Positions 1 through 46,439 of a DNA stretch of 46,439 nt are shown here, one piece after another (position 1 is the stretch's first letter; every line of letters starts with the position of its first letter). This DNA is from a virus (lineage: Duplodnaviria > Heunggongvirae > Uroviricota > Caudoviricetes). Both the position numbers and the translations under genes were made by a program. The stretch lies in IMG/VR virus record IMGVR_UViG_2579779067_000003; one strand, 5' to 3'. A model generated the notes under the pieces. That model did not search any database, had not been told where the DNA came from, and saw nothing but the letters and a program-made list of their open reading frames with translations.

Positions 1-1284
1 TTACAGACTTCTTGAAGGTTGCGCTGCTGTTACAACACGCGGTTGATCTTCCGCGGCATCTTCCAGTGCACTTAAATCACGGTCTTTCACTTCTGGCATT
101 TTCAGCGCAGAGATTAAACCAATCACTGAATATGCCATGATCATAATGGCGATCGGATACCAGGATTCCGTCATGGTGCAGAAAATACCCGCCAGGATAG
201 GACCAAAACCGGAAGCGATAAGACCACCAATTTCTTTAGAAATAGCCATCCGGGTAAAGCGGTTTTTACAGCCGAACATTTCTGCCATGGTAATGTTTTC
301 CAGAGCAAATAATCCCAGCACCGCACAGTTATGAATCACAATCAGTGCAACCATAATGGTGCTCGGGGCATAGCTTTTATCTACGATGATAGAAAGCATT
401 GGCCACGCCAGCACAATCGCAGAGGTATTCATAATAATATACGGAATCCGGCGACCTATTTTATCGGATAACCAACCAAGGAACGGAATGGTCATAAAGC
501 CGAGAATCGAACTGATCATCAATGCATCTGTTGGAATTGCTTTGTTAAACAATAACGTCTGCACTAAATAGCCTGCAAGGAAAGTCTGAATTAAACCGGA
601 GTTACCAGCCTGACCAAAACGCAGCCCTGTTGCCAGCCAGAAGGATTTGCTCTGGAACATGCTACCAGCAGGTGCAGGTTTTGCTGTCGGTTGGTTGCTG
701 TCGTTAACCTTCTCAAAGACCGGGCTTTCTTTCAGATTCATACGCAACCAGATAGCAAAGACCATCACGACAACGCTCGCCAGGAACGGTATACGCCATC
801 CCCACGCCAACAGTTCCTCTTTACTGAGAATGAAGAACATAAAGGCCCAGATTGCCGTTGCGCTCAAGGTTCCGCAGTTAGTCCCCATAGCAACAAATGA
901 GGAGATAATTCCGCGCTTACCTTTTGGCGCATATTCCGCCAGCATCGTACCGGCACCGGAAATTTCCGCGCCAGCCCCCAGCCCCTGAATAATACGCAGC
1001 GTCACCAGCAAAATTGGCGCAAACACACCAATTTGTGCATAGGTCGGCAGCACACCAATTAAGGTGGTACAGATCCCCATCATGGTGATGGTAATAAAGA
1101 GCACTTTTTTACGCCCTATTCTGTCGCCCATTTTGCCGAAAATAAATGCTCCGACAATACGTGCCACATAACCTGCACCATAGGTTCCCATTGCCAGAAT
1201 TAACGCCATTGCCGTTGACGATTCAGGAAAAAATATTTCATGAAAAACTAACGCTGCGCCGAGCGAATATAACTGGAAATCCAT
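1..1284 (-). CDS. ydfJ: MFS-family inner membrane transporter (host gene flanking the prophage)
   Basis: 427-aa ORF with multiple hydrophobic segments and the MFS loop motif G-x-x-x-D-R-x-G-R-K (GKMGDRIGRKK); sequence recalled as E. coli YdfJ; ATG at 1282-1284, stop at window position 1-3. Confidence 0.85.
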   Translation of the reverse strand: MDFQLYSLGAALVFHEIFFPESSTAMALILAMGTYGAGYVARIVGAFIFGKMGDRIGRKKVLFITITMMGICTTLIGVLPTYAQIGVFAPILLVTLRIIQGLGAGAEISGAGTMLAEYAPKGKRGIISSFVAMGTNCGTLSATAIWAFMFFILSKEELLAWGWRIPFLASVVVMVFAIWLRMNLKESPVFEKVNDSNQPTAKPAPAGSMFQSKSFWLATGLRFGQAGNSGLIQTFLAGYLVQTLLFNKAIPTDALMISSILGFMTIPFLGWLSDKIGRRIPYIIMNTSAIVLAWPMLSIIVDKSYAPSTIMVALIVIHNCAVLGLFALENITMAEMFGCKNRFTRMAISKEIGGLIASGFGPILAGIFCTMTESWYPIAIMIMAYSVIGLISALKMPEVKDRDLSALEDAAEDQPRVVTAAQPSRSL

Positions 1285-2069
1285 AATTCACAGGTGTTTT
1301 TTCCCATCCTGTGGTTTCCTTGGCGTTTTCTAGGTTTTTTCAGATAGTTGCATTTTTTAAAAAGCATCCTAAGTTCGATCTCAGTGTCTATCTGGGGCCT
1401 ATTTCTGTCCCATATATGCCCCAAAAAAACTCCCCAACAGATAAGTAGTTTTTTCATGGATTTATGCGTAAAATCAAGAACGGCTGGAAATCATTCAATA
1501 CTCACACTATCGAAAAATTTACCAGCCAACCGCAGCACGTTCTTGCATAAGGCGTGTCTGCGTTTTTTCAACTATTCAGATACATCACTCCCATCACAGT
1601 CATTCCTCCGCATCAAAGGCATATAGGCTATATCACCTTGATATTTTTCTTTTTCAGATAAAAACTGTTATCTATGTATACTTTTAAACCCAATCCGTGT
1701 AGAGTCTCTGCATAAGATAGTTTGCAGTTGCCGCTTCAGCTTGCGCCATAAACCGCCTGATTTTTGCTGCCACCTGCTAGCATTCCTGTATACCTGAAAC
1801 GACAATGTTTATCTACGAACTTTAAAAACACCCAAGATAAAAATTGTCAACTATATCATATATAACACATTACTAATTCGAGGCTATATGAACAGCATAC
1901 TGATAATCACTTCTCTCCTTATCATATTCAGCATTTTTAGTCATGCCCTAATAAAATTAGGGATTGGCATATCCAATAACCCAGACAAAACCGATGTATA
2001 AGTCAACATATCCTGAATCAGACATACAATATCGCAATGAAAATCAATAATATTTTAAGGAATATCTTC

Positions 2070-2303
2070 ATGAAATCAAAAGACACCCTAAAGTGGTTCC
2101 CTGCGCAGCTTCCTGAAGTAAGAATTATCCTAGGGGATGCTGTAGTGGAAGTAGCAAAACAGGGAAGACCTATTAATACCAGAACATTGCTTGATTACAT
2201 TGAAGGAAACATAAAGAAAAAATCATGGCTGGATAACAAAGAATTATTACAAACAGCGATATCAGTTCTTAAAGACAACCAAAATTTAAATGGTAAAATG
2301 TAA
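2070..2303 (+). CDS. ydfK: YdfK/YnaE-family small prophage protein
   Basis: Translation MKSKDTLKWFPAQLPEVRIILGDAVVEVAK... recalled as YdfK; ATG at 2070 preceded by AAGGAA about 9 nt upstream; ORF-track start at 2037 is an upstream in-frame ATG. Confidence 0.8.
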   Translation: MKSKDTLKWFPAQLPEVRIILGDAVVEVAKQGRPINTRTLLDYIEGNIKKKSWLDNKELLQTAISVLKDNQNLNGKM

Positions 2304-2620
2304 TATAATAAACTTACTTTTTTATCATTTTTCCACTTTAACAACATTTTGCTCCACTTTTCCACGTCCAAACAACTTGAAATCTGGTTAAAATAACACG
2401 CAACACTATTCTTCTTCCTTGAGCCCGCCCGGAACTCGAAAAACAAACCAAGTTAAAGCCATTTTTCACAAAATCGATTTTGGGTCTCACCAAAAATTAC
2501 GGGGTTGCATACGCATTCGTTTATTTTCGAACGTGTACATACAAATATGCACAAAAATAATCATAATTATTTTCTGAGATGCATTATGATATGAACACCA
2601 ATTTCGAATAGAGTCTCACT

Positions 2621-3211
2621 ATGTCTCGAATTTTTGCTTACTGTCGGATATCAACGCTGGATCAGACCACCGAAAATCAACGCCGGGAAATCGAAAGTGC
2701 AGGTTTTAAAATCAAACCTCAGCAAATAATCGAAGAACACATTAGCGGCTCAGCAGCAACCAGTGAGCGTCCTGGTTTTAACCGGTTGCTTGCTCGCCTG
2801 AAATGTGGTGATCAATTGATTGTGACAAAACTGGATCGCCTTGGTTGTAATGCAATGGATATCAGGAAAACAGTGGAACAACTGACCGAAACAGGTATCA
2901 GAGTGCATTGCTTAGCATTGGGTGGCATTGACCTGACCAGTCCAACAGGAAAAATGATGATGCAAGTAATTTCAGCAGTCGCTGAATTTGAACGAGACCT
3001 TTTACTTGAACGCACTCATTCCGGGATAGTAAGAGCCCGCGGCGCAGGGAAACGTTTTGGTCGACCACCTGTGTTAAATGAAGAACAGAAACAGGTGGTA
3101 TTCGAACGAATTAAGTCAGGTGTAAGTATAAGTGCCATTGCCCGGGAATTCAAAACCTCGCGGCAAACCATTTTAAGAGCCAAAGCAAAACTTCAGACAC
3201 CTGACATATAA
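2621..3211 (+). CDS. pinQ: Serine recombinase / DNA invertase
   Basis: 196 aa, N-terminal YCRISTLDQ catalytic-serine motif and C-terminal HTH typical of resolvase/invertase family; recalled as PinQ/PinR; convergent with tfa. Confidence 0.85.
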
Positions 3212-3308
3212 AAAATAATCTCGGTGTGAGATGCTTTACGTGTTCCAAGCCCCCTTCCTTGCCGTAAATGGAAAGATACATCTAATTATAGAATTTATAT
3301 GTTTTACC

Positions 3309-3884
3309 CTACGGCAGTGCTGGCCATTCAATATCCTGTGCAGTTGACGTATCAACACGGTTCAGCAATACCCGATACTTTTTCCATGCTTCCAGCAACG
3401 AGATTTCTTCCTCCGTTGCAATTTCCAGATCTGCAGCATCCTGAAGCGGCGCAATATGCTCACTGGCTACCTGCATCAGGTTGTTTTTTGTTTCTTCCGC
3501 CTCCCGGATCCGGAACAGTTTTTCTGCTTCCGTATCCTTCACCCAGGCTGTGCCGTTCCACTTCTGAAACTCCCCTTCCGGCGATAACCAGGTAACATTT
3601 TCCGGTAACGGACCGAGTTCAGAAATAAATAACGCGTCGCCGGAAGCCACGTCATAGACGGTTTTTCCCCGATGATCTTCAACGAGATGCCACGATGCCT
3701 CATCACTGTTGAAAACAGCCACGAAGCCTGCCGGAATATCTGGCGGTGCAATATCGGTACTGTTTGCTGGCAGACCTGTATGAGGCGGAATATATGCGTC
3801 ACCTTCACCAATAAATTCATTAGTTCCGGCCAGCAGATTATAAATTTTTATGGTCTGTGGTTGTTCACTCATTCTGAATGCCAT
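3309..3884 (-). CDS. tfaQ: Tail fiber assembly protein (Tfa)
   Basis: 191 aa [37 protein letters not shown]...; start ATG overlaps stf stop (TAATG). Confidence 0.85.
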
Positions 3885-6800
3885 TATGCAAGCCTCACAA
3901 TATAGTTAAATGCGATGTTTTTGACGGTGTTTTCCGCGTTACCAGCAGCGTTAACGGTGATGGTGTGTCCATGTGAGCCAATCGCAACCGAGTGCGTATG
4001 AGCACCAATACCGACAGTATGTGCGTGTGCACCTGCGCTTGCAGCAGTGCCGGACAGTGAGTGGGTATGTGCGCCAGCAGATGATGTTGCATAGTTTTGA
4101 TTATGCACAACAGACAATCTTGTTGATGCACTACCAGCACCGGAGTTAGCACTAGCCGTGTTCACGTTGGCTAGTGAGTGTGTGTGTGCTCCAGCCGAGT
4201 TTGTAGAGCCGCTCACACTGTGTGTGTGTGCCCCGGTGTTATTCGTAGATTTAGTGCCGTAATCAAACGACGATGTGGTTTTCGTACCCAAATCCGTACT
4301 TGATGCGCTGGCGCTGTGGGTGTGCGATTTAATGCCGTCCTGTTCCTGAGACAATACGGCACGACCACTGGCGGGCTTGCCCTTAATCGTCCAGCCACGC
4401 ATATCAGGGATCACGCCTGACGGATAAGCAACTGCAAGTTTCGGGTATGCAGATTTGTCAAAAGTCTGCCCCTGCATCAGGGCATAACCAGACGGAACGG
4501 TATCTGATGGCCACGGAATTGGTGCGCCAACTGGGTAGCTTTCTGGTGGAAGATTTTTCGAGGTATAAACTTCTGCCCAGTCTTCCTCAAAACCATAACC
4601 GTCTCTTGAAGAACGGTAGAACAGACCACCATTTCTGTAATGCGCCTTCATCTGCAGGGTCCGGCAACTTCCGACTCCGGTATAGAAGTTAACCAGAATA
4701 TAGCTGTCGCCAGAGCGGGTGACATTGTAAGCGCCTGATTCGGCATTCCATGGAACGCCACCATCCGCATCGGCATATGTATCCGTTGCCCTTCTGGCAA
4801 AAGCAGCCACATGCGCGGCGGTTAAAGTAATATCTTTGGAACCATCAAACTCAACACCAGAAACCAGTCTTGGCGTTTGCAGCTTTGTTGCTGTTAATGC
4901 ATTACCGTTCAGACTTGCGGACAGTTTGGTTCCAATAACCAGTTCGCCGGTTGCGTTATCAATAGCAAACGGTCTTAATGTATTCCAGCCACCATAAACA
5001 TCACCTTGATTGGTAAGCAGCAGGTAAGTTTTAGCGCCATCATTACGCCATAATGCACCATACTCCCCACCTATCATTCGAATCTGATTACCACCACGCG
5101 CTACAATTTCGTCTGTGGCAAAAAGTTTTTTGCACGACAAGTTATCGTTAACGATTAACGAATGAGACTCATAAAAACCACGCCCACTCTTAAAATCAAG
5201 GATAACGTCCGCCGCGATACATTCAGTCGCCGGATTTGTTGCCCCAAACTTATAGGTCGTATCATTAACAACGAGATCAGCACCAGGTGCGGATATTGAC
5301 AGGCCATCTTCAATAAACGCAAAAACAGGGAAAGCAGCGCCATCAACATAGAACACAGAGCGCAAATCATCGCCCTTATTACTCATCATTATTGAGTGAA
5401 TGGCTCGTTCATTGTTTTGATATTGCCAGAACATGCCATAAGCATAACGCCCCCTGTCAGTCCAGCCACCAGGCATAACAAATCCGTTAAACTCGCAGTT
5501 ATTCATCGGATCGCCTGCGGTTCGCGTTGCCGTGGTGATAATGACTCTTGATGCCAGTTCGCTTACTGAGCCAGCAGAACGCATAACAACAACAGGGTAA
5601 TATTTTCCAGATGTTGCACCTGCAGGAGCGTTAACCCGCACATAACGCATACCACGCTTATCAGCAAAGTCTGTTTTACTGACCGCGTTAATGTTGTTCA
5701 GGAAGCATCCCTTATCGGGTATATCAGCGCCGTTCTGGTCTTTCTGCAGACGTTTCTCTGCATTGTCATAGGCTGATTTTACTGCCTTTGGCGTTGCCGC
5801 CAGCGTTTCAGACGTACTGTTGGTCGCACTGCTGAGCTGTACTATCCCCTTTTTCGTCGTACTTGCATCCTCAAGCGCCACGGCGGATGCAATATCCTCT
5901 GCCCGTTTTGCCGCTGTCTCGGCGCGCGTTGCCGCGGATTCCGCCGTACTTTTGCTCTGTGCTGCCGCCGTCGCACTGCCAGCTGCCTCTGTCGCCTTCG
6001 TGGATGCTGTCGTGGCGCTGCCCTTCGCTGCGGACGCTTGTCTGGTCGCCTCATCTTTTGAAGCAGACGCCGATGATGCCGATGACGCCGCCGAACTGGC
6101 GGACGATGCGGCAGCCGTTTTTGAGGATTCTGCGCTGGTTTCCGACGCTTTCGCGTTCGTCTCGGATGTCTTCGCTGCGGAAGCAGACCTCGCTGCTGCG
6201 CTGGCCTGTTCAGTGGCTTCGCCAGCCTTCGTTGTGGCTGTTGAAGCAGACGATGCGGCACTTTCTGCCGATTTTCCGGCGGCGGTGGCACTGGCTGAGG
6301 CCTGCCCGGCACTTGTTGACGCGGCACTGGCAGACGACGCAGCCGCTGTTTTTGAGCCTGCCGCAGCCGAGGCGCTCTGTCCCGCTGCCGTTTCAGAAGA
6401 CCTGGCGTTTGTCTCAGACGTCTTTGCCGCCTTCGCGGAATTGCCTGCCGCCGTTGCCGAGGAAGCGGCACTACTGGCGCTTGATGATGCGTTCGTTTCT
6501 GATGATTTCGCTGCCTCTTTTGAGGCCGCCGCATCCCGGGCTGAGGTGGCTGCTTCTGACGCCTTCGTGGTCGCGGCGGATGCAGAAGTGGCTGCTGATT
6601 GTTGTGACGCTGCCGCATTCGTTTCTGACGTTTTCGCCGCAGCGGCACTGGTAGCTGCCGCGCTTTTTGAGGACTCTGCAGCAGCAGCACTTTTCGATGC
6701 TTCACTGGCCTTTGTTGATGCCGTTCCTGCGCTGGAAGATGCTGACTGAGCCGACGACGCGGCCTGTCCGGCTGACGTGCTGGCTGCGCGTGCTGAGCCT

Positions 6801-7246
6801 GCAGCATCAGTCGCATGGGTTGCCGCCTCACGTGCTGATGTGCCGGCATCGCTGGCTGACTTCTTCGCGGCTGCCGTGTTCTGTGCCACCGCGGACGCGT
6901 TACGCGCCACCTCTTCCACCATCAGTTCAAAACGGCGCAGTGCCTCAGGACGGGCATCATCCTCCGTCATGGCACCGAGAAAATCATTCAGCGTACCGGG
7001 TCGGGAATCTTCATACACGGTGATGGTCCCGGCATGTGACGGCGGGAATCCCTCCACCAACAGAATAACGCTGTACTGCCCGTACTCAACGTCCATGCTG
7101 TAACGCCCGGCTTCATCCGGATTTTCTGAGGCCAGCGTGTTTACCACCACCGTGGTGCTGTTACGTTTTGCTTTCAGCTGGATTGTGCAGTTCTGTACCG
7201 GTTTTCCTGTGCCGTCTTTCAGTACACCTGAAATCTTTACTGCCAT
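3884..7246 (-). CDS. stf: Side tail fiber protein (lambda Stf-like), with Ala/Ser/Thr-rich repetitive shaft and His-rich C-terminal tip
   Basis: N-terminus [37 protein letters not shown]... matches lambda Stf; ORF-track start at 7252 is GTG two codons upstream of the ATG at 7244-7246; C-terminal repeated GAHTHS motifs. Confidence 0.85.
5840..6900. repeat. Imperfect tandem coding repeats inside stf (Ala/Ser/Thr-rich shaft, motif KTSETNA repeated at least three times)
   Basis: Protein low-complexity repeats seen in translation; generates three long spurious ORFs on other frames/strand (5820..6749, 5842..6849, 5863..6654). Confidence 0.7.
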
Positions 7247-7255
7247 ATTCACCCC

Positions 7256-7284
7256 ACAAAAAAGCCCGCCTGAACCGGCGGGCT
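7256..7284 (-). terminator. Intrinsic terminator downstream of lom, immediately upstream of stf
   Basis: Plus-strand AGCCCGCC-TGAACC-GGCGGGCT hairpin at 7263-7284 preceded by A-run 7257-7263 (U-run on the minus-strand transcript). Confidence 0.6.
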
Positions 7285-7310
7285 GTCATAACACTGTGTT
7301 ACCTGGCTAA

Positions 7311-7910
7311 TCAGAATTTATAACCGACACCCACGATGAAACCGTCAGTGCGCCAGTCACCACTGCCGGAGCCTTCATAAGCAATATCAATGGCCACGGA
7401 TTCGGTCGGGTTAAACTGCACGCCAGCCCCCCACGCCAGAGACGTGTTGCTGTGGCGACCGTCATCACTTCCGGTCAGCACATCGTGCTTTTTCCCCTTG
7501 TTGTCAGTTACGCGAAGATAATCCCCGGAGAAAGTCGACACACGGCTGTAAGCCACACCCGCCATCGCATACGCGCTGAACCATTCATTCACGCGCACAG
7601 ACGGCCCCGCCATTACGCTGAACCAGCGGTTACGAACGGAATCTTCATGCCAGCGGGTATCGCTGTAACGGGTCAGCTGGCGATTCTTGTCTCCTGCATA
7701 GCTGAATGACGTCACCAGCCCCAGTGTGTCCGTAAACTCATAACGGTATTTCACGTTAATCCCGTTCAGATCATCACTGCCGGGGACGTTCGTCGAGGCA
7801 TGAAGATACCCCGCGCTCAGCGTGGACTGATGTTCAGACGCCCATGCAGGCGCACCGGATACGGCCAGACAAATGGCTGCGGACAAAATTGCTGCACAAA
7901 CTTTACGCAT
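7311..7910 (-). CDS. lom: Outer membrane protein Lom (Ail/Lom/PagC family beta-barrel)
   Basis: 199 aa with signal peptide and C-terminal YEGSGSGDWRTDGFIVGVGYKF identical in pattern to lambda Lom; own RBS GAGG upstream of ATG. Confidence 0.9.
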   Translation of the reverse strand: MRKVCAAILSAAICLAVSGAPAWASEHQSTLSAGYLHASTNVPGSDDLNGINVKYRYEFTDTLGLVTSFSYAGDKNRQLTRYSDTRWHEDSVRNRWFSVMAGPSVRVNEWFSAYAMAGVAYSRVSTFSGDYLRVTDNKGKKHDVLTGSDDGRHSNTSLAWGAGVQFNPTESVAIDIAYEGSGSGDWRTDGFIVGVGYKF

Positions 7911-7932: not shown

Positions 7933-7958
7933 ATAAAAAAGGCGTCATTCCTGACGCC
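7933..7958 (-). terminator. Intrinsic terminator between J and lom
   Basis: Hairpin GGCGTCA-TTCC-TGACGCC at 7941-7958 with A6 run at 7935-7940 on plus strand (U6 on minus-strand transcript). Confidence 0.6.
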
Positions 7959-7980: not shown

Positions 7981-10900
7981 TCAACGAATACTGATGCCGG
8001 AAGCGGCTTTTTTGGTCACAATCACCGTACAGTCGGTGATATTGCCTGCCCCCTGATTGCCTTTCTGGAAAATCTTAAACTCCAGAGTGACGCTTCCCCT
8101 GCCACTCGGCATATCAATAACTGCACTGTAACTACCGGGAATGGCCCCTTTAGTTTCTCTGGATGCGATTAATACGCCGTTTTTGCGAACTTCAAAACCA
8201 TAACCCGTGTATCTTGTACCTCCCGGGTTATTACCACTTCCCGGATCGCTATACGCTATTCCGTTAAAGATAATGGGCGGAATAATGATTTGACGGTCAA
8301 AGTTATGATCATCGCTGATGGTGACTGTAACCGTCCCGTTTGGTGTTTCCGTATTACCCCACGTACCAGCCTGTTTCGGGAATGATTTGGATACAGCTTT
8401 AACGAAGTCACCTCTGACCTGAGTCGCCTCCAGCATGCCCTTAATCGTACAGTTTTCATTTACCGTGACATTGTTGAGCGTCCCGGCGTTCGCATTCACA
8501 CTGCCACTGATATCGGCATTTTTCGCCGTCAGCCGCCCGTCCGGTGTCAGGGAAAATACCGGAGGATTACCGCCGCTGGTAATGGTGGGAGCCGTCAGGC
8601 GTTTCAGGAACACTTCGTTCATGAATATCTGATCGCCCTGCCCAACAAACATCGGCTTTGTGTTGCCATTCGCAGGATTAATCATCGCAATCCTGTCTGC
8701 CGCCAGCAGCACCTGACTCTGCATGCCGTCAGGGGTGTTCTCAATACCGGCACCAATACCCGCGATATAAAGGCGTCCGTCCTGCATCTGCTGCAGCTTC
8801 ACAGCCCACATGCTGTTCAGGTTATTATTTGTATCAACCTGAACCTTCTGTATCTGCTGAATTGCCGCACTCTGGTCTTCCAGTTTCTTATTGACGGTCT
8901 GCGTGATTTCATTGCTGACATCCGTAATGGACGTCCTGATTTCAGCCAGGTCAGGCGCAAGCTGACCGTTATCAATCTGCGTCCACAGCTCCTGAGCCAG
9001 ATGGGTTTTCCCTATCTCGCCTTTGAAAAAATCCAGATAACCGGATGCATCATCACTCGGCTGACCAACAGCCTCCACGAATGCCGATTTGCCAACGGTG
9101 TTCACACTGCGGATATAAAAGTAATAATCATGGCCCGGTTTGATATTGATACTGGCGGCTATCCAGTACAGCGCCGTGCCAAGATAGCGTGCTGTGGTTT
9201 CAACCTGCCTGATATCCGCAATCCGCTTTTCCGAGAACCAGAACTCAAACTGTACCGTCGGGTCATAAACGGCAAGATGCGGCGTGGCGGTTATCTGAAA
9301 ATAGCCCGGCGTCAGCTCAATCCTCGACGGTGCTGCCGGTGCGGCAATCCGGAACGATACCGACGCCGGATCGCCCTGCTGTCCCCAGGCATTTGCCGCC
9401 CGGACTGTCAGCCTGTAGTTTCCCAGCGCCAGCTGCGTGAAGCGGTATGTGGTTTCCGTCGTCCGGGCCGTGCTGACCAGCCGCTCACTGCCGTCATCCG
9501 CTGCCACGGTCAGGCGAAGCATAAAGCTCACACCCTTCACCACCTTCGGCGTGTCCCAGCGCGCCAGCACCTGGTATTCACCGCTGTCTGCGGTGACTTC
9601 TGCGGTCAGGTGCTGCACTGCTGGCGGCGTGACACCGTTTACCGTTCCGCTCTGGTCGCCGTCAAAGTGCGCCCCGTTATCCACGATGGCTTCTTTCTCC
9701 GGTACATGCTGCACGGCAGTGATGGCATACGTGCCGTCATCGTTCTCACGGATACTCACACAGCGGAACAGGCGCTGGCGCAACGTCGGCAGCTTCAGCC
9801 CCCATATGCTGTATCCGGCAACGCCGTCAGGAACCCGGTTCACTTTCACCTTAAGTCCGTCGGTGACGGACTGAACCTCCACGCTGGCCGGATTGCCACT
9901 TCCGTCAACCAGGCTTATCAGCGTGGTGCCGGAGGATGGCAGCGTGATTTCACGGTCGAGCGTCAGCGTCCGGGTCCGGCTGTTCACCGCCAGCACGCGC
10001 CCACCGGTGCTGATACCGGCATAGTCATCATCGCAGATTTCAATAACATCACCCGGTACATGGCGAAGCCCTTCTGCGCCCACGCTGAAGTCCACGGTCT
10101 GCGTTTCCAGCAGTTCTGTTTTAATCAGCCACAGCCCGGCGCGGTGCGCCTGCCCCCGGCTGGTACAGCCAAAGGCATCCATTTTCGTGACGTTACGACC
10201 GTAACGGGCAATGGCCTGCGTGTCCTCCACAAGCTCTGTCGCCGTCTCCCAGCCGTTATTCGGGTCAATCCAGTTCACCTCAACGGCATTATGGCGGTCC
10301 TTCAGGGCGCTGAAGCTGTAGCGGAACGGCGCACCATCATCCGGCATCACCACATTACTGCGGTTATAGGTCCACACCTTATCCGACGGTCGGTCCTGCA
10401 CGAACGTCAGCGTCTGCCCGTTCCATACCGGCATACAGCGCATCGCAGAGCAGAAATCACTGAGCACATCCCACGCCTTGCGCTGTGTGGTCAGGTACGC
10501 ATTACAGGTGATGCGCGGCTCCGTGCCGCCAAAACCGTCCGGCACCGACTGGTCGCAACACTGGCCGATGACATACAGCGCCCATTTATCCACATCTTCC
10601 GCACCAAGACGTTTACCCATGCCGTAGCGCGGGTGGGTCAGCATATCCCACAGACACCAGGCCATGTTGTTGCTGTATGCTGGCTTAAACGTTCCGTCCC
10701 AGATACCGCTGTATTGCCGCGTCTGCGGGTTATAATTCGACGGCACCTGCAGAATACGCCCGCGCAGATGATAATTACGGCTCACCTGCTGGCTGCCGAA
10801 CTGCTCCGAGTCCACCTGCACGCCGACCAGTGCCGTGTTCGGGTAGCCCTGTTTCACATCGATAATTTCGGTGTATGACGACCAGAGCGTTTTGTTCTGC

Positions 10901-11478
10901 AGCTGGTCTGTGGTGCTGTCCGGCGTCATCCTGCGCATCCGGATATTAAACGGGCGCGGCGGCAGGTTATCCACCACCACAGAGGCCAGGTACTGCGAGG
11001 TGGTTTTGCCTTTAATGGTGATGTCTTTTTCCGTCACCCAGCCACCGTTACGTTGTATCTGAACCAGCAGGCGGACTTCCGATGGATTCCTGTCCCCCTT
11101 TGAGGTGGTTTCCACCAGTGCCTGCACGCCGAAGGTAAAACGCAGTCGGTCGATGTTTGCCGACGTGATGGTCCGGGTGATCGGCGTGTCGTATTTCACT
11201 TCCGTACCCAGCACCGTCTCGGAGCCGGAGGATTCAAATCCCTCCGGCGGTGTCTGCTCCTGCTCACCGGCCCGGAACACCACCGTGACGCCGGATATAT
11301 TGGTATTCCCCTCACTGTCCAGCACCGGCGTACTGTTCAGCAGCACGCTTTTTAATCCATCCACCGGACCTTCAATCGGCCCTTCGCTGATGGCATCAAT
11401 CACACTCAGCAGCTGCGTGGATTTCAGGTTGTCCTTCGCTTCGCGCGGGGTATGCCCCTTACTGCTGCCTTTACCCAT
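7981..11478 (-). CDS. J: Tail tip / host specificity protein J (central tail fiber)
   Basis: 1165 aa; N-terminal two-thirds recalled as near-identical to lambda J ([37 protein letters not shown]...); C-terminal roughly 150 aa differ from lambda. Confidence 0.9.
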
Positions 11479-30671: not shown

Positions 30672-31394
30672 CTAAGAAAATCTTGATAAATATTGGTGCG
30701 GAGGCACACCAAAATATCCTCTAAAAACACTTACAAAATATGATGCATTGTCATACCCGCATATTCCCGCCACCTTGCCGACAGTATGGTTACTGTAGAT
30801 CAATAATCTTTGCGCCATCATCATTCGTTCTTCAAGAATTAATTTACTAAACGATAATCCTTCGTCTTTTAATTTTCTTTTTAACAAACTCTCGCTCATA
30901 TATAATCTTGAAGATATATCACAAAGTCTCCATGACGCTGAGATATCCGAGTGAATAATAGCCTTAACTTTACAACCTAAGCTATTAAGACTTCCGAACA
31001 AAAAACTTTGCACTATTTTCTCTGAAGATAAGACAGCAAGACATGCAAGTGATATTTGATTTCTAACTACATCCACGGTTTTGCTATCACAATTCAAGCA
31101 TGCAACCAAGTTCTTTAACAATGAAAAATCTTCACATTCTACTATCAAGTATGACGGATAAAACCTTCTTACAGAAAAAGGTGAGAGTGTGTAGTTTTTA
31201 AAGAAATCATTAACTGTTTTCTCCTCAACATCTACGATCATTAGATGATCTGTATTTGACGAAAAAAGATCTTTTAAATTGTATTCAATGAGGACAGCAT
31301 TTCCTTTTTTAAACAAAATATCTTCTTTACCAATTCGGACACCAAACGAGTTCAACACCAAAATGATAGAACATATGTATGGCATATTATCCAC
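30672..31394 (-). CDS. AraC/XylS-family transcriptional regulator (AT-rich cargo gene)
   Basis: 240 aa with C-terminal AraC-type HTH region (…MAQRLLIYSNHTVGKVAGICGYDNASYFVSVFRGYFGVPPHQY); AT-rich gene and upstream region. Confidence 0.8.
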   Translation of the reverse strand: MDNMPYICSIILVLNSFGVRIGKEDILFKKGNAVLIEYNLKDLFSSNTDHLMIVDVEEKTVNDFFKNYTLSPFSVRRFYPSYLIVECEDFSLLKNLVACLNCDSKTVDVVRNQISLACLAVLSSEKIVQSFLFGSLNSLGCKVKAIIHSDISASWRLCDISSRLYMSESLLKRKLKDEGLSFSKLILEERMMMAQRLLIYSNHTVGKVAGICGYDNASYFVSVFRGYFGVPPHQYLSRFS

Positions 31395-31791
31395 CTGATA
31401 TCATTGGGGTTACACCAGGTAAGTATAGGTGGAAAATCAATATTCGCCAGTTCAACAATAAGGAAAATCTCATTGCATCACAACTATAAAACCATGTGTT
31501 TAACTCACAAAAAACAAATCATTAAACTAATCTGTTATATTATAATAGCTGCGTGCAATAATAATATTATATGCTCTTAATATTCACTTGAAATATCTTC
31601 ATATAAAAACAGATTGAATAAAATCTTTTGGGGCTGGTATGTTTACCAACATTAAATTGCATCTCAATGTTTTCTTTAGCGTGAACAGGATTTTTATACA
31701 AACTGACACTATGGGCATCATAGCGTAGTTTTTACGATTGTAAATATCCTGCATACAGGAACTCATCACTTTCAGATGATATCGCATACAG

Positions 31792-32751
31792 TTAATTCAC
31801 CATCAGTCTTAGAGCCAGTTCTTCCGGATAGGGATCGAAGTAATTCTGTGTAAGCAAGTAATCATTAGGATACTCACCCAGATAATGCTTCAGCAGAGTC
31901 AACGGCGCAAGAAGAGGCAATGTGCCAAAGCGATAGTTAAGTATAACCTCGCTCAACTCTTTACGCTGGCGTGTACTTAAGTAATTACTAAAATACCCCT
32001 GTATATGCATCAGCACATTCGTGTGATTTTTACGTGATGCTGGTTTTCTGAGAATCGCCATCAGATTATCACGATACACCTCAAAGTATGATTCAAGGTC
32101 CGCCCACTCGTGTATTGCAGCCACAAATGGTCCCATATCTTTATAGCCTGCCTGGCTATGCGCCAACAACTGAAGCTTATAACGACTATGAAAAGCTAAT
32201 AACTCTCTTCTTGATAATTTCTCCTTGTAAAGATGATTGAGCTCATGCAAAGCAAAAACTCTTTCAATAAAATTCTCACGAAGCACTGGATCATGTAATC
32301 GCCCATCCTCTTCAACCGGTAGCCAGGAAAACTTTTCCATCAAAGTGCTCGTAAATAGTCCCACTCCATCTTTACGACCTCGATTACCATTTTCATCATA
32401 GACACGCACGCGCTCCATGCCACAGCTGGGAGATTTAGCACAAACCACAAACCCCGATACATCCTTTAATTTGTCCATATAAGAACGACTAAACTCTGTC
32501 ATTCTCTCTGTCACATCCTCATTCTGGTCGTGGCTGAAACACATCCGTATATTTCCTTGCTTCGAGCGCACAAGTCGTAGAGCAGGACGCGGAACTGGCA
32601 GCCCTATAGCCATTTCCGGACATACTGGTCTGAATGTTACCCATTCCACTAATTTGTCCATTAAAAAGTCATCTCTTTTGTGACCACCATCAAAACGAAC
32701 AGCAGAACCGCCCAAACAACCGCTGATCCCAATCACAGGTTTTTTTATCAT
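31792..32751 (-). CDS. DUF523/DUF1722 two-domain protein (TudS/YbgA-like)
   Basis: N-terminal GISGCLGGSAVRFDGGHK motif typical of DUF523, conserved Cys at about 12, 44, 105; C-terminal half YbgA-like. Confidence 0.65.
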   Translation of the reverse strand: MIKKPVIGISGCLGGSAVRFDGGHKRDDFLMDKLVEWVTFRPVCPEMAIGLPVPRPALRLVRSKQGNIRMCFSHDQNEDVTERMTEFSRSYMDKLKDVSGFVVCAKSPSCGMERVRVYDENGNRGRKDGVGLFTSTLMEKFSWLPVEEDGRLHDPVLRENFIERVFALHELNHLYKEKLSRRELLAFHSRYKLQLLAHSQAGYKDMGPFVAAIHEWADLESYFEVYRDNLMAILRKPASRKNHTNVLMHIQGYFSNYLSTRQRKELSEVILNYRFGTLPLLAPLTLLKHYLGEYPNDYLLTQNYFDPYPEELALRLMVN

Positions 32752-32943
32752 TTCCTCCCCCTTGACTAATTCATTAACACATAAACTTTGTAATGCACGG
32801 ACTAAATTGCCTTTCTGGCTTCATCACTGACAATTTTTCTGTTATGGACTATTCCTAATATAGTAGGAAAGTTCTTTAAGTGATCGGTCGTACTCATCTA
32901 TCTTTCATACTTACTCTCAACTATCAAAAGTACAGGATTTATT

Positions 32944-33468
32944 ATGAAGTTATGGCCTGTGTTGACTGGCATTGCACTCTCTTTCACTCTTATAGCATGT
33001 AAGGCCCCGACACCACCTAAAGGTGTGCAGCCGATTACAAATTTTGACGCCAACCGCTACCTCGGAAAATGGTATGAAATAGCTCGCCTCGAGAACTGGT
33101 TCGAACGTGGTCTGGAACAAGTCAGCGCTACTTATGAAAAACGGAACGACGGAGGGATTCGCGTACTTAACCGTGGATACGATCCAACGAAAAACAAATG
33201 GAGCGAGAGCGAAGGTAAAGCATACTTTACTGGAGATACTAAAACTGCAGCGTTGAAAGTTTCGTTTTTTGGCCCCTTCTATGGTGGCTATAATGTAATC
33301 AAGCTGGATGATGAGTATAAGTATGCTCTTGTCAGTGGTCCGAACAGAGAATACCTATGGATTCTGGCAAGGACCCAAACTATTCCAGATAATGTAAAAG
33401 CAGACTATGTGCGTACCGCTCAAAAGTTGGGATTCAATGTCAATGAACTATTATGGGTTAAACAATAA
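32944..33468 (+). CDS. blc: Bacterial lipocalin Blc-like outer membrane lipoprotein
   Basis: 174 aa; signal peptide with lipobox LIAC; NFDANRYLGKWYEIARLENWFERGLE and SFFGPFYGGYNVI motifs as in E. coli Blc. Confidence 0.85.
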   Translation: MKLWPVLTGIALSFTLIACKAPTPPKGVQPITNFDANRYLGKWYEIARLENWFERGLEQVSATYEKRNDGGIRVLNRGYDPTKNKWSESEGKAYFTGDTKTAALKVSFFGPFYGGYNVIKLDDEYKYALVSGPNREYLWILARTQTIPDNVKADYVRTAQKLGFNVNELLWVKQ

Positions 33469-36280: not shown

Positions 36281-37837
36281 TTACCTATCAAACAACGGAT
36301 GTATTACAAAATCTCTCTTCATATCAGTAATATCCAAATTAGGTTTATCAAAAGATGAATATATAATTAAAGATGCTGTTTTCCTTATGCCAACCACGCC
36401 TACGACGAACCAGACTTTAAGTAACTCCTCAAAATTCATCAATATTTTTGTATGTTGATCATCCTCTTTAACTACAGTCAATCTATCAAGTAAATGCTGC
36501 GATATATCATCTTTTACTGCTTGTCCTATGTTTGAGACTGTAAAATCAGAAAATGAAATCAAGGAAAGCACATCCAAATATTCTTCGATAAACGGATATA
36601 TGCTTTTCCATTCTGTAACCAAAGCTCTCTTTCTGGACGAATAAAATTTCTCTTCGGCAATTAACACAATATTTTCATTCATGTTAACCATACCATCGCA
36701 CTCAGAAAGACATATATTTACGAAATTAATTGCATCTCTAGGCCTAAGCATTGTTCTGTCAAGGATATAATCATCTGCTCCAATACCTTCAACTGTAAAA
36801 TTAAAAATATCCTTCATTAATACAGACTTATTTGATTGATATCTATTTTTAACCAAATGGTTAATTCTAGCATCAATAATCTCTCTTATTTCCGTTTTAT
36901 TCCATGATATGGAATATATTAAAGATTGATCTTTCTCATCCTGCCTTAAACTACTTTTATAAATTCCCATTAAAATATCTGTTCTTATTGATATCAGAAC
37001 CTTAACCGACTTTATATCTAATAATTCTCGAAAGGCCTCAAGAAGAGCATTAATAAAGTCATATCTGATGGCGCTCGTGCTTAACCAAGATTTATCTAAA
37101 TCATCGATACTGATTACTATTCTAACCTGGTTTGAGTCAGCGAACTCCTCTTTAAGTATTTTAATAAGTTCTTTTTGTTTAAAAAGAAGTTCACGACTCA
37201 CATAACTTGAAGTTTCTGATTGTATTTTGGCTGTATCAGAATTAGATATTTTACCACCCACACCAACAGCGGAATTTCCGAGTTTGAATGACAAATCACT
37301 TTCAAGCTTGTTACTTATTTCAATGAGCGCTTTATCATTGAAGAAATTTTCTTTAAATTGTTCAATATAATCATTCGCAACTTCTGGTTTATACGGTTTC
37401 TTCTTACCACCAATAAGATCTTTAATTTCCTCAAAAAAGCTTTGATAGGAAGAACGATAAACGGCTGGTATAACTTTCATAAGTAATACATGCAGCCATA
37501 ACGATTTATAAAACCCACGTAAATCTATCCCTTTCGAGATCAAATCAGATATAAACACATTGTTATTAATATGTTCAAATATCGTATTTTCTGCCTCTAT
37601 TGTGTCATGCAGCTTAATATTTCCTTTGTCTAATATTTTTTTAAGCAACGCAGACTTACCGCTTCCTGTTCTTCCAACAATAATTCTTCTTGTAAAATCA
37701 GGATTCTTCTCAGTAGAGTCAAAATTCACAATACCTTTAAAAACATTGGACTCATAAAAACAAGCATCAAGATAAGAATCAGTTTCCGCCTCTAATTTTC
37801 CAATCTCATCATTATTTCTGAATTTATAGGCATTCAT
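36281..37837 (-). CDS. AT-rich P-loop NTPase, KAP/PifA-like by motif (candidate phage-exclusion protein); function unproven
   Basis: 518 aa; Walker A GRTGSGKS at about residue 55, Walker B-like IVISIDDLDK about 180 residues later, RPRDAINF arginine-finger/sensor-like motif; sampled 60-nt lines are roughly 25-30 percent G+C versus about 45-50 percent in tail genes (hand counts). Confidence 0.6.
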   Translation of the reverse strand: MNAYKFRNNDEIGKLEAETDSYLDACFYESNVFKGIVNFDSTEKNPDFTRRIIVGRTGSGKSALLKKILDKGNIKLHDTIEAENTIFEHINNNVFISDLISKGIDLRGFYKSLWLHVLLMKVIPAVYRSSYQSFFEEIKDLIGGKKKPYKPEVANDYIEQFKENFFNDKALIEISNKLESDLSFKLGNSAVGVGGKISNSDTAKIQSETSSYVSRELLFKQKELIKILKEEFADSNQVRIVISIDDLDKSWLSTSAIRYDFINALLEAFRELLDIKSVKVLISIRTDILMGIYKSSLRQDEKDQSLIYSISWNKTEIREIIDARINHLVKNRYQSNKSVLMKDIFNFTVEGIGADDYILDRTMLRPRDAINFVNICLSECDGMVNMNENIVLIAEEKFYSSRKRALVTEWKSIYPFIEEYLDVLSLISFSDFTVSNIGQAVKDDISQHLLDRLTVVKEDDQHTKILMNFEELLKVWFVVGVVGIRKTASLIIYSSFDKPNLDITDMKRDFVIHPLFDR

Positions 37838-42328: not shown

Positions 42329-44800
42329 ATGAGTAAAGTCTTTATTTGCGCCGCTATTCCTGACGAACTGGCAACAAGGGAAGAAGGCGCTGTGGCTGTA
42401 GCCACAGCCATTGAAGCTGGCGACGAACGCCGTGCTCGAGCAAAATTTCACTGGCAGTTCCTGGAACATTATACGGCTGCTCAGGACTGCGCTTATAAAT
42501 TTATTGTCTGCGAGGATAAACCTGGCATACCTCGCCCTGCCCTCGATTCATGGGATGCTGAATATATGCAGGAAAACCGCTGGGATGAGGAGTCTGCTTC
42601 TTTTGTCCCGGTTGAGACTAAATCCGATCCGATGAACGTCACTTTTGACAAGCTGGCCCCTGAAGTACAGAACGCTGTCATGGTTAAGTTCGACACATGT
42701 GAAAACATCACCGTTGATATGGTTATTAGCGCACAGGAATTGTTGCAGGAAGACATGGCAACATTCGACGGACATATCGTTGAAGCGTTGATGAAAATGC
42801 CAGAAGTTAACGCCATGTATCCGGAGCTTAAGTTGCACGCCATTGGGTGGGTTAAGCATAAATGTATTCCTGGTGCTAAATGGCCCGAAATTCAGGCAGA
42901 GATGCGCATCTGGAAAAAACGTCGCGAAGGTGAACGCAAGGAAACCGGAAAATACACGTCTGTTGTTGATCTCGCCCGCACCAGAGCCAATCAACAGTAC
43001 ACTGAAAATTCAACAGGAAAAATCAGCCCGGTCATTGCTGCCATTCATCGCGAATACAAGCAGACATGGAAAACACTGGATGACGAACTGGCCTACGCTC
43101 TCTGGCCTGGTGATGTGGATGCCGGAAACATTGACGGCAGCATCCATCGCTGGGCAAAAAAAGAAGTTATCGACAACGACCGCGAAGACTGGAAGCGTAT
43201 CTCGGCATCAATGCGCAAACAGCCTGATGCCCTTCGCTACGACCGCCAAACTATTTTTGGCCTTGTCCGTGAGCGTCCGATCGACATTCACAAAGAACCC
43301 GTAGCACTGAACAAATATATCTGCGAATACCTGACGACAAAGGGCGTGTTTGAGAATGAAGAAACAGACCTGGGCACTGTTGATGTTCTCCAGTCATCAG
43401 AAACACAAACTGATGCAGTGGAAACTGAGGTATCTGATATCCCAAAAAATGAAACCGCGCCGGAAGCTGAACCATCTGTAGAGCGTGAGGGGCCGTTCTA
43501 TTTCCTCTTCGCAGATAAGGACGGAGAAAAATACGGTCGCGCAAACAAACTTTCTGGTCTGGATAAGGCACTGGCTGCTGGCGCCACTGAAATCACTAAA
43601 GAAGAATATTTTGCCCGAAAAAATGGCACATACACGGGCTTACCGCAAAATGTAGATACCGCTGAAGATTCAGAACAACCAGAACCGATAAAAGTTACCG
43701 CTGACGAAGTAAACAAAATTATGCAGGCAGCCAATATCAGCCAGCCTGACGCCGATAAGTTGCTTGCTGCATCACGTGGTGAATTTGTTGAAGGGATTAG
43801 TGACCCGAATGATCCGAAATGGGTTAAGGGGATCCAGACCCGCGATTCTGTGAACCAGAACCAGCATGAATCGGAACGGAACTACCAAAAAGCGGAACAA
43901 AACAGCCCAAATGCGTTACAAAACGAGCCAGAAACGAAACAGCCTGAACCAGTGGCGCAACAGGAAGTGGAAAAAGTCTGCACCGCCTGCGGTCAGACCG
44001 GCGGCGGCAACTGCCCTGATTGTGGCGCGGTGATGGGCGACGCAACATACCAGGAAACATTCGATGAAGAGTATCAGGTTGAAGTTCAGGAAGATGATCC
44101 GAAGGAAATGGAAGGCGCTGAACATCCACACAAGGGGAACACTGGCGGCAATCAGCATCACGATAGCGATAATGAAACTGGCGAGACGGCAGATCACTCA
44201 ATTAAGGTGAACGGTCATCACGAAATCACATCCACCAGCAGGACGTGTGACCATCTAATGATCGACCTTGAAACCATGGGAAAAAATCCTGATGCCCCGA
44301 TCATCTCAATAGGTGCAATATTTTTCGATCCGCAAACCGGAGATATGGGACCGGAATTTAGTAAGACTATCGATCTGGAAACTGCTGGCGGAGTCATTGA
44401 TCGGGACACCATTAAATGGTGGCTTAAGCAATCACGCGAAGCGCAATCTGCCATTATGACCGATGAAATCCCGTTAGATGATGCACTGTTACAATTGCGG
44501 GAATTTATCGACGAAAACTCCGGTGAATTTTTTGTTCAGGTCTGGGGAAATGGAGCCAACTTCGACAACACGATTTTGCGCCGTTCATACGAACGGCAGG
44601 GGATCCCCTGCCCGTGGCGTTACTACAACGATCGCGATGTACGCACAATCGTTGAGCTGGGGAAAGCCATAGACTTCGATGCCAGAACGGCTATTCCATT
44701 CGAAGGTGAGCGCCATAATGCACTTGATGACGCCCGTTACCAGGCAAAATACGTTTCAGTTATCTGGCAAAAACTGATCCCGAGTCAGGCTGATTCTTAA
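42329..44800 (+). CDS. ydfE: Large YdfE-like protein with C-terminal DEDDh 3-prime-5-prime exonuclease domain and internal zinc ribbon
   Basis: 823 aa; C-terminal motifs MIDLETMG (exo I), GNGANFDNTIL (exo II), HNALDDARYQA (exo III); CTACGQ...CPDCG zinc-ribbon-like; uninterrupted here. Confidence 0.7.
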   Translation: MSKVFICAAIPDELATREEGAVAVATAIEAGDERRARAKFHWQFLEHYTAAQDCAYKFIVCEDKPGIPRPALDSWDAEYMQENRWDEESASFVPVETKSDPMNVTFDKLAPEVQNAVMVKFDTCENITVDMVISAQELLQEDMATFDGHIVEALMKMPEVNAMYPELKLHAIGWVKHKCIPGAKWPEIQAEMRIWKKRREGERKETGKYTSVVDLARTRANQQYTENSTGKISPVIAAIHREYKQTWKTLDDELAYALWPGDVDAGNIDGSIHRWAKKEVIDNDREDWKRISASMRKQPDALRYDRQTIFGLVRERPIDIHKEPVALNKYICEYLTTKGVFENEETDLGTVDVLQSSETQTDAVETEVSDIPKNETAPEAEPSVEREGPFYFLFADKDGEKYGRANKLSGLDKALAAGATEITKEEYFARKNGTYTGLPQNVDTAEDSEQPEPIKVTADEVNKIMQAANISQPDADKLLAASRGEFVEGISDPNDPKWVKGIQTRDSVNQNQHESERNYQKAEQNSPNALQNEPETKQPEPVAQQEVEKVCTACGQTGGGNCPDCGAVMGDATYQETFDEEYQVEVQEDDPKEMEGAEHPHKGNTGGNQHHDSDNETGETADHSIKVNGHHEITSTSRTCDHLMIDLETMGKNPDAPIISIGAIFFDPQTGDMGPEFSKTIDLETAGGVIDRDTIKWWLKQSREAQSAIMTDEIPLDDALLQLREFIDENSGEFFVQVWGNGANFDNTILRRSYERQGIPCPWRYYNDRDVRTIVELGKAIDFDARTAIPFEGERHNALDDARYQAKYVSVIWQKLIPSQADS

Positions 44801-45124: not shown

Positions 45125-45158
45125 CTAAAAGCCACACTAACTAATGAGAGAAGTTGAA

Positions 45159-46439
45159 ATGAAATATCCGACAGGCGTGGAAAACCATGGAGGGAAATTA
45201 CGTATCTGGTTTGTTTATAAAGGCGTAAGAGTCAGGGAAAATCTGGGGGTTCCTGACACAGCAAAAAACAGGCGCGTTGCAGGTGAACTACGCTCCTCTG
45301 TTTGTTACGCAATAAAAACTGGTGTTTTCGACTATGCAAAACAGTTTCCCTCCTCACGCAATCTGGAAAAATTTGGTGAGGCCCGACAAGATTTAACCAT
45401 AAAAGAACTGGCTGAAAAATTTCTGGCACTGAAAGAAACTGAAGTCGCCAAAACATCACTCAACACATACCGTGCCGTCATCAAAAATATCCTGAGCATA
45501 ATCGGTGAAAAAAATCTTGCCTCATCGATTAATAAAGAAAAATTACTGGAGGTTCGTAAAGAGCTACTGACTGGATACCAGATCCCCAAAAGTAACTATA
45601 TTGTTACACAACCAGGGAGATCGGCTGTAACTGTAAATAATTACATGACAAATCTTAACGCCGTGTTCCAGTTTGGTGTTGATAACGGTTACCTGGCAGA
45701 TAATCCGTTTAAGGGGATCTCGCCATTAAAGGAATCAAGAACCATTCCGGATCCTCTTTCGCGGGAGGAATTTATCCGTCTTATCGATGCGTGCAGAAAT
45801 CAGCAAGCAAAAAATTTATGGTGTGTTTCTGTTTATACTGGCGTTCGCCCTGGTGAGCTGTGTGCACTTGGATGGGAGGACATAGATCTGAAAAATGGAA
45901 CAATGATGATCAGGAGAAATTTAGCAAAAGACCGTTTCACGGTACCAAAAACACAGGCGGGAACCAATCGGGTCATTCATCTTATTAAGCCAGCAATCGA
46001 CGCTCTCCGGAGTCAGATGACATTAACGAGACTGAGTAAAGAGCATATCATTGATGTTCACCTCAGAGAGTATGGCAGAACAGAAAAACAAAAATGCACC
46101 TTTGTTTTTCAACCTGAAGTGTCAGCGAGAGTAAAAAATTATGGTGACCATTTTACCGTTGACTCAATAAGGCAGATGTGGGACGCAGCGATAAAACGTG
46201 CCGGACTCCGCCATCGAAAATCATATCAGTCGAGACATACTTATGCCTGCTGGTCGCTGACAGCTGGTGCCAACCCGGCATTTATAGCAAACCAGATGGG
46301 CCATGCAGATGCGCAAATGGTATTTCAGGTATACGGAAAATGGATGTCTGAAAACAATAATGCACAGCTAGCTTTGTTAAATACACAGTTAAGCGAGTTT
46401 GCCCCAACCATGCCCCATAATGAAGCAATAAAAAATTAA
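45159..46439 (+). CDS. intQ: Tyrosine recombinase / phage integrase (IntQ/IntR family)
   Basis: MKYPTGVENHGGKLRIWFVYKGVRVRENLG... N-terminal arm-binding-type region; C-terminal catalytic R...HxxR...Y region (SRHTYACW ... VYGKWM); stop codon is the last triplet of the window. Confidence 0.85.
   Translation: MKYPTGVENHGGKLRIWFVYKGVRVRENLGVPDTAKNRRVAGELRSSVCYAIKTGVFDYAKQFPSSRNLEKFGEARQDLTIKELAEKFLALKETEVAKTSLNTYRAVIKNILSIIGEKNLASSINKEKLLEVRKELLTGYQIPKSNYIVTQPGRSAVTVNNYMTNLNAVFQFGVDNGYLADNPFKGISPLKESRTIPDPLSREEFIRLIDACRNQQAKNLWCVSVYTGVRPGELCALGWEDIDLKNGTMMIRRNLAKDRFTVPKTQAGTNRVIHLIKPAIDALRSQMTLTRLSKEHIIDVHLREYGRTEKQKCTFVFQPEVSARVKNYGDHFTVDSIRQMWDAAIKRAGLRHRKSYQSRHTYACWSLTAGANPAFIANQMGHADAQMVFQVYGKWMSENNNAQLALLNTQLSEFAPTMPHNEAIKN

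Follow-up and report, generated by a model that had tools for sequence, protein, structure and literature searches.

In phage lambda, the central tail fibre consists of three J chains and is made up of FNIII domains, a helical shaft, a beta-sheet prism and three Ig-like tip domains (PMC11101478). Each Ig-like domain puts four bottom loops (L1-L4) into one LamB monomer; upon receptor binding, the domains spread, the prism twists, the shaft flips and the tail opens (PMC11101478). Phage 434, whose genome was sequenced in 2022 (PMC9119081), uses OmpC as its own receptor, and placing the 434 tail-fibre gene where lambda carries J leads to OmpC binding (PMC3509688; PMC11101478). The 434 central fibre has also been described as OmpC-targeting (PMC12502783). 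Working with an alignment of 1207 J homologues from nature and a genome set that took in cdtI, mEp460 and Ayreon, Maddamsetti et al. (2018) delimited J residues 960-1132 as a "specificity region" that is hypervariable and recombines independently of the remaining J (PMC6646904). Within it, indels at 1012, 1048-1049, 1077-1078 and 1107 define J lineages and are tied to receptor change (PMC6646904). The J receptor domain has thus been described as an independently exchanged hypervariable module since 2018.

The sequence analysed here, referred to as the window, comprises 46,439 nucleotides of a Caudoviricetes record (IMGVR_UViG_2579779067_000003). An identical sequence occurs in Escherichia coli Z22-6, where RefSeq places the prophage at the Qin site beside truncated ydfJ, ynfT, ydfK, pinQ and tfaQ. 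The window looks like a complete lambdoid prophage at a site that in K-12 holds no more than the Qin remnant. It holds an intact J of the lambda family, assembled from three known modules and ending in a 434-type domain, for which OmpC, not LamB, is quite probably the porin. The J gene, its internal blocks and its downstream neighbours are as follows.

7981..11478, minus strand: gene J, tail-tip / host-specificity protein, intact, 1165 aa (ORF list and translation)
9064..11478, minus strand: J residues 1-805, hub domains and two FNIII/Ig domains, lambda-like (97% amino acid identity to lambda; Pfam FNIII-A_GpJ, Phage-tail_3, Ig_J, Ig_J_second)
8689..9063, minus strand: J residues 806-930, alpha-helical shaft and upper fibre prism, phage-21 type (diverged from lambda, 28 residues longer)
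8419..8688, minus strand: J residues 931-1020, conserved lower fibre prism (79-89% DNA identity to lambda)
7984..8418, minus strand: J residues 1021-1165, Ig-like receptor-binding domain, phage-434 ("h434") type (434 match; Pfam Ig_GpJ_C)
7311..7910, minus strand: lom (Ail/Lom outer-membrane protein), directly downstream of J (Pfam Ail_Lom, 408 bits)
3884-7252, minus strand: side tail fibre, 1122 aa (Pfam phage_tail_N, Gp34_trimer, Collar; RefSeq annotation of the identical locus)
3309-3884, minus strand: tail-fibre assembly protein tfaQ (Pfam Caudo_TAP; RefSeq annotation of the identical locus)

All 1165 J residues align to positions 1-1163 of the 1163 in the NCBIfam model NF049904 lambda_TipJ ("phage attachment tail tip protein J") with 2322 bits, above the curated cut-off of 1950 bits. 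Six Pfam domains score above their cut-offs and follow one another in the order FNIII-A_GpJ, Phage-tail_3, Ig_J, Ig_J_second, Phage_Tail_Tip (residues 872-1000) and Ig_GpJ_C (residues 1029-1164; 90 bits against a cut-off of 26). The identical sequence in strain Z22-6 bears the RefSeq label "host specificity protein J". According to Pfam and RefSeq, the lambda tail genes L, K and I lie upstream, and lom, the side tail fibre and a fibre-assembly gene lie downstream; the order J to lom is that of lambda and 434. The side tail fibre and tfaQ (3309..7252) are a second host-range determinant, separate from J. In the gap between J and lom, a GC-rich hairpin (7934-7958; GGCGTCA…TGACGCC) preceded by a run of A looks, in sequence, like an intrinsic terminator after J when read on the minus strand, and a terminator is annotated at the same position in phage 434. 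Inside J, an antisense open reading frame of 625 aa runs along the plus strand (9001-10878) and most likely reflects codon composition, not a gene.

Lambda J (NC_001416; NP_040600) served as the reference for the block identities. At the DNA level, identity is about 95-97% up to codon 810, falls to 28-63%, with gaps, over codons 811-930, stands at 79-89% over codons 931-1020, and drops again at residue 1021 (window 8418) to about 45-51% from there to the end. The corresponding amino acid identities are 97% for residues 1-805, 33% for residues 806-900 with the 28-residue insertion included, 73% for residues 901-1020 and 36% for residues 1021-1165. An earlier note on this DNA had described the N-terminal part of J as close to lambda J and the last 150 or so residues as unlike it; both statements hold, the latter with 36% identity over residues 1021-1165, and the C-terminal peptide that it quoted is found in the translation of 7981-11478 on the minus strand. 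The range given there for the divergence, 7981-8500, needs trimming: the receptor part is indeed diverged at 7984-8418, but the upper 80 or so bases belong to the conserved island of residues 931-1020. The second diverged block, 8689-9063 (J residues 806-930), was absent from that note. The terms alpha-helical shaft and prism for these parts follow the lambda structure paper (PMC11101478).

Residues 931-1020 are conserved across an alignment of lambda, 21, 434 and phi330. Beyond them, the high identity to lambda J ~990-1132 that would mark a lambda-type, LamB-binding domain is absent. Even so, the diverged C-terminus is still clearly homologous to that of lambda, and phmmer matches J to the lambda gpJ chains in the PDB with an E-value of about 1e-96. 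Relative to lambda J, window J carries indels at lambda positions 1011-1012 (+2), about 1051 (+6), 1077 (+1) and 1103-1110 (-4), and these sites are the four published hot spots of Maddamsetti et al. (2018).

For the receptor domain, the telling comparison is that with phage 434. Aligned with 434 J, the last 145 residues of window J match at 136 positions (94%) with no gaps, as against an identity of 36-39% to the lambda domain. In an alignment with lambda, 21 and phi330, the indel pattern of the domain is common only to 434. The nine substitutions relative to 434 are S1032A, Q1036K, A1037V, N1047D, S1077D, R1127G, I1136V, Q1138H and G1143R, several of which lie in or beside predicted variable loops. 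The hybrid lambda h434 imm21 (OM418627) carries the 434 domain at 196 of 198 residues (99%). The two residues by which its receptor domain departs from wild-type 434 (5323-5916 of the compared loci) are D to N in the YDDPG loop and R to W in GNQRAG; either strain variation or adaptation in the laboratory may account for them. The A8/phi330/phage 21 lineage shares about 44% identity with the window domain over aligned residues, or 53% over the last 199 J residues, which include the conserved joint; the high identity expected of an OmpC-binding domain of that type is thus absent. Judged by sequence, window J carries the classical 434 "h434" host-range allele, which is already known. Any novelty that the earlier note implied for the J C-terminus finds no support, as the domain is this long-known and very common allele.

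The fold of the domain was modelled with AlphaFold2 from the last 165 J residues, as a monomer built from nine sequences, with moderate confidence (pLDDT 75). Its four best PDB matches (TM 0.71-0.72, E-values 8e-13 to 6e-12) are all gpJ receptor domains, as listed below; the next match, with an E-value of 1e-3, is nine orders of magnitude worse.

9wcb: A8 gpJ with OmpC of E. coli EDL933
9wca: A8 gpJ, closed
8xck: lambda gpJ, closed
8xcj: lambda gpJ bound to LamB

The gpJ fibres are also the closest solved chains to window J by sequence. According to the model, the window domain has the Ig-like fold common to the LamB-bound lambda domain and the OmpC-bound A8 domain. The indels relative to lambda map, in the model, to four inter-strand loops at residues 1038-1043, 1079-1086, 1109-1114 and 1140-1144. 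Motifs kept in all lineages (FDRQ, NG and DMPxGxG) are sited in alternate turns, and given an up-and-down sheet, the modelled turns that hold them lie at the end opposite the variable loops. From this topology, the four variable loops probably correspond to the receptor-facing L1-L4, for which the structure paper gives no residue numbers.

If window J behaves like the lambda and A8 fibres of known structure, its Ig-like domain would form the fibre tip in three copies. Each copy would reach with its four variable loops into one subunit of a porin trimer, which for a 434-type domain would most likely be OmpC, and porin binding would then trigger the fibre rearrangement that opens the tail. This loop-insertion mechanism is proposed for window J by homology.

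Because its domain is 94% identical to that of 434, which the literature assigns to OmpC, OmpC is the likely receptor of window J. The suggestion in the earlier note of a receptor other than LamB is in this way supported by homology to an OmpC user, and the reading best supported by sequence comparison is that this prophage uses a receptor different from LamB, likely OmpC. Hantke 1978 and Fuerst & Bingham 1978 are reportedly the primary sources for the use of OmpC by 434. For this exact sequence, the step from a 434-type domain to OmpC is one that we infer. The growth of related phages is in line with it: Ayreon, phi458, PhiR26_1, PhiR34_1, mEp332 and mEp460, all of which carry the allele with domains 95.8-99.4% identical to the window domain, were propagated on K-12. 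In addition, mEp332 and mEp460 are members of the Mexican mEp collection of lambdoid phages, in which FhuA alone is used as receptor more often than OmpC (PMC11893012). Both the growth on K-12 and this ranking are consistent with OmpC, if indirectly; the papers on mEp460, on Ayreon and on lambdoid mosaicism do not name the receptor. We also considered whether the window allele might be the "1A2" gpJ of Eligo, which binds the OmpC of EDL933, not that of K-12 (PMC11338833). This identity is unlikely, given that phages with the window allele grow on K-12.

The most serious competitor to an unmodified 434 specificity lies in the nine substitutions themselves. With several of them in or beside the predicted variable loops, they might shift a 434-like domain to another porin (OmpF, PhoE or OmpN) or to a subset of OmpC variants, and small changes are known to alter porin choice: four substitutions suffice for lambda J to gain OmpF (PMC6646904), and the gpJ proteins of A8 and 1A2 differ in the OmpC variants that they accept (PMC11338833). 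Such a shift is nevertheless unlikely for the window domain, which keeps 94% identity to 434 with zero indels; moreover, the natural copies in 2083 genomes form one continuous group of about 90-100% DNA identity, and phages with domains 95.8-99.4% identical grow on K-12, as 434 does. That the substitutions retune this particular copy to certain OmpC variants or to a different general porin is likewise rather doubtful. If it were true, natural 434-type domains would make up a graded porin-specificity series, not one "OmpC binder". Scarcely plausible is a domain that binds LamB as lambda's does despite its divergence. It belongs to the same fold and family as lambda's domain, and LamB is also the receptor of unrelated phages, the mEpimmI group among them (PMC11893012), yet the near-identical 434 domain is the textbook switch away from LamB, and with 36% identity to lambda the window domain has indels in all four receptor-facing loops.

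A further possibility concerns the source of the 434 phenotype, namely that 434 and lambda h434 owe their OmpC dependence to the side tail fibres, not to J. The h434 hybrid also has the lom, side-fibre and assembly genes of 434, taken along with the J end; because it inherited these extra genes, its sequence is not enough to assign OmpC dependence to J. The side fibres of Ur-lambda do bind OmpC (PMC12617516). We nonetheless regard this origin as very improbable, since reviews credit J, or the tail-fibre gene, with the switch, lambda plaques form without side fibres although J binding is required (PMC12617516), another J domain of the same fold has been solved with OmpC (9wcb), and the window side fibre (1122 aa) differs from that of 434 (437 aa). 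The preferred reading thus remains a 434-type J domain that probably depends on OmpC.

This allele is widespread. At a protein identity of at least 90%, the domain is present in 74 phage records, including cdtI, mEp460, mEp332, Ayreon, phi458, Evi, 2B8, several ECOR-derived PhiR phages and dozens of Stx1a-, Stx2c- and Stx2a-converting phages. A search with its 438 bases, at a coverage of at least 80%, located it at 2859 places in 2083 of 5426 complete E. coli genomes, with up to seven copies per genome. The full-length corresponding end of lambda J occurs in only 96 of the 5426, and the best five of these 96 are laboratory strains, three of them DE3 lysogens. Nearly all hits of a protein homologue search with the domain were fragments or fusion artefacts of this allele; among the named entries are "Tail component of prophage CP-933K" as well as copies in E. 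albertii and Shigella sonnei. The allele is therefore an ordinary one, carried by over a third of complete E. coli genomes, and the LamB-binding domain of lambda is the rare form. J genes of E. coli prophages are normally "unlike lambda" and, because lambda's domain is found in 96 genomes as against 2083, this should not be flagged as unusual. In practical terms, a suitable annotation for the prophage is a tail tip of the 434 type that probably depends on OmpC.

The prophage is an ordinary lambdoid one at the Qin site with a common mosaic J, and nothing about its J allele is new. The Qin locus itself occupies 1-3884, where truncated ydfJ (1-1284) is followed by ynfT, ydfK, a gene for a pinQ-like serine invertase (2621-3211) and tfaQ. 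This DNA invertase gene adjoins the tail-fibre assembly and side-fibre genes. A search for an invertible tail-fibre segment near it (1285-7300) found no convincing bracketing inverted repeats, the best pairs around the invertase being 16-22 nt long with 73-94% complementarity, so that the invertase may be an orphan. In the early region, an open reading frame of 518 aa (36281-37837, minus strand) has weak matches to KAP-family P-loop and STAND NTPases: KAP_NTPase scores 28 bits, above the cut-off of 20, nSTAND1 and AAA_22 stay below their cut-offs, and the PHROG is one of unknown function. A PADLOC scan of this KAP-like NTPase frame gave no match; it could be a putative prophage-borne defence or accessory gene. 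The late region includes a cluster of genes that are not phage-like (30672-33468), and the large early-left protein sits where lambdoid phages carry a recombination nuclease. The features concerned are as follows.

30672-31394: AraC-family regulator
31792-32751: 2-thiouracil desulfurase/DUF1722 protein
32944-33468, opposite strand: lipocalin-like protein
42329-44800, plus strand: large early-left protein, 823 aa, with a C-terminal Rv2179c-like 3'-5' exonuclease domain
45144-46439: integrase gene, following the 42329-44800 gene and extending to the window end

Viewed against its relatives, window J is a mosaic of a lambda-like body (residues 1-805), a phage-21 shaft (residues 806-930), a conserved joint and a 434 domain (residues 1021-1165). 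The shaft stretch is nearly identical to that of phage 21 J. Four pairings of shaft and receptor domain can be set side by side: short shaft with lambda domain in lambda, short shaft with 434 domain in 434, long shaft with A8/phi330-type domain in 21, and long shaft with 434 domain in the window. Because these four phages differ in their pairings, shaft and receptor domain assort independently. Residues 931-1020 are likely the recombination joint between modules, and the mosaic would have arisen through recombination at this conserved joint. For comparison, the engineered gpJ chimeras of Eligo were joined at lambda residue 964, inside the conserved joint region (PMC11338833). Window J is a small illustration of independent module exchange, extended here to a second module, the shaft.

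Among the known systems, lambda J (8xcj/8xck), which binds LamB, shares with window J its family, domain order, fold and conserved joint; its shaft is 28 residues shorter, and the four receptor loops differ by indels. Phage 434 J (OL657226) is nearly identical over the N-terminal 805 residues, and the J-lom-side fibre order is the same; however, 434 J has 1137 aa with lambda's short shaft, whereas window J has 1165 aa, and the 437-aa side fibre of 434 is replaced in the window by a different, much longer gene of 1122 aa. Phage 21 J (OL657228) has the same long shaft and is close to identical over residues 1-960 (89% overall), but its receptor domain is of the A8/phi330 type, not the 434 type of the window. 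The A8 gpJ chimera (9wca/9wcb) has the same Ig-like fold as the window domain, is its best structural match (TM 0.72) and has a porin receptor, as does J of the Stx2a phage phi330 (PV189401), for which OmpC was established as the receptor by knockout and complementation; the A8 and phi330 domains form a lineage apart from that of the window, with an indel pattern of their own. The closest counterparts are cdtI, mEp460, mEp332, Ayreon, phi458 and the O157 Stx1a/Stx2c phages, whose domains, 95.8-99.4% identical, are effectively the same allele. Over its structural half, the window shares about 97% identity with mEp460, Ayreon, Tritos and cdtI; cdtI, mEp460, Ayreon and their kin differ from the window in immunity, cargo and side-fibre regions, but in J they show no substantial difference.
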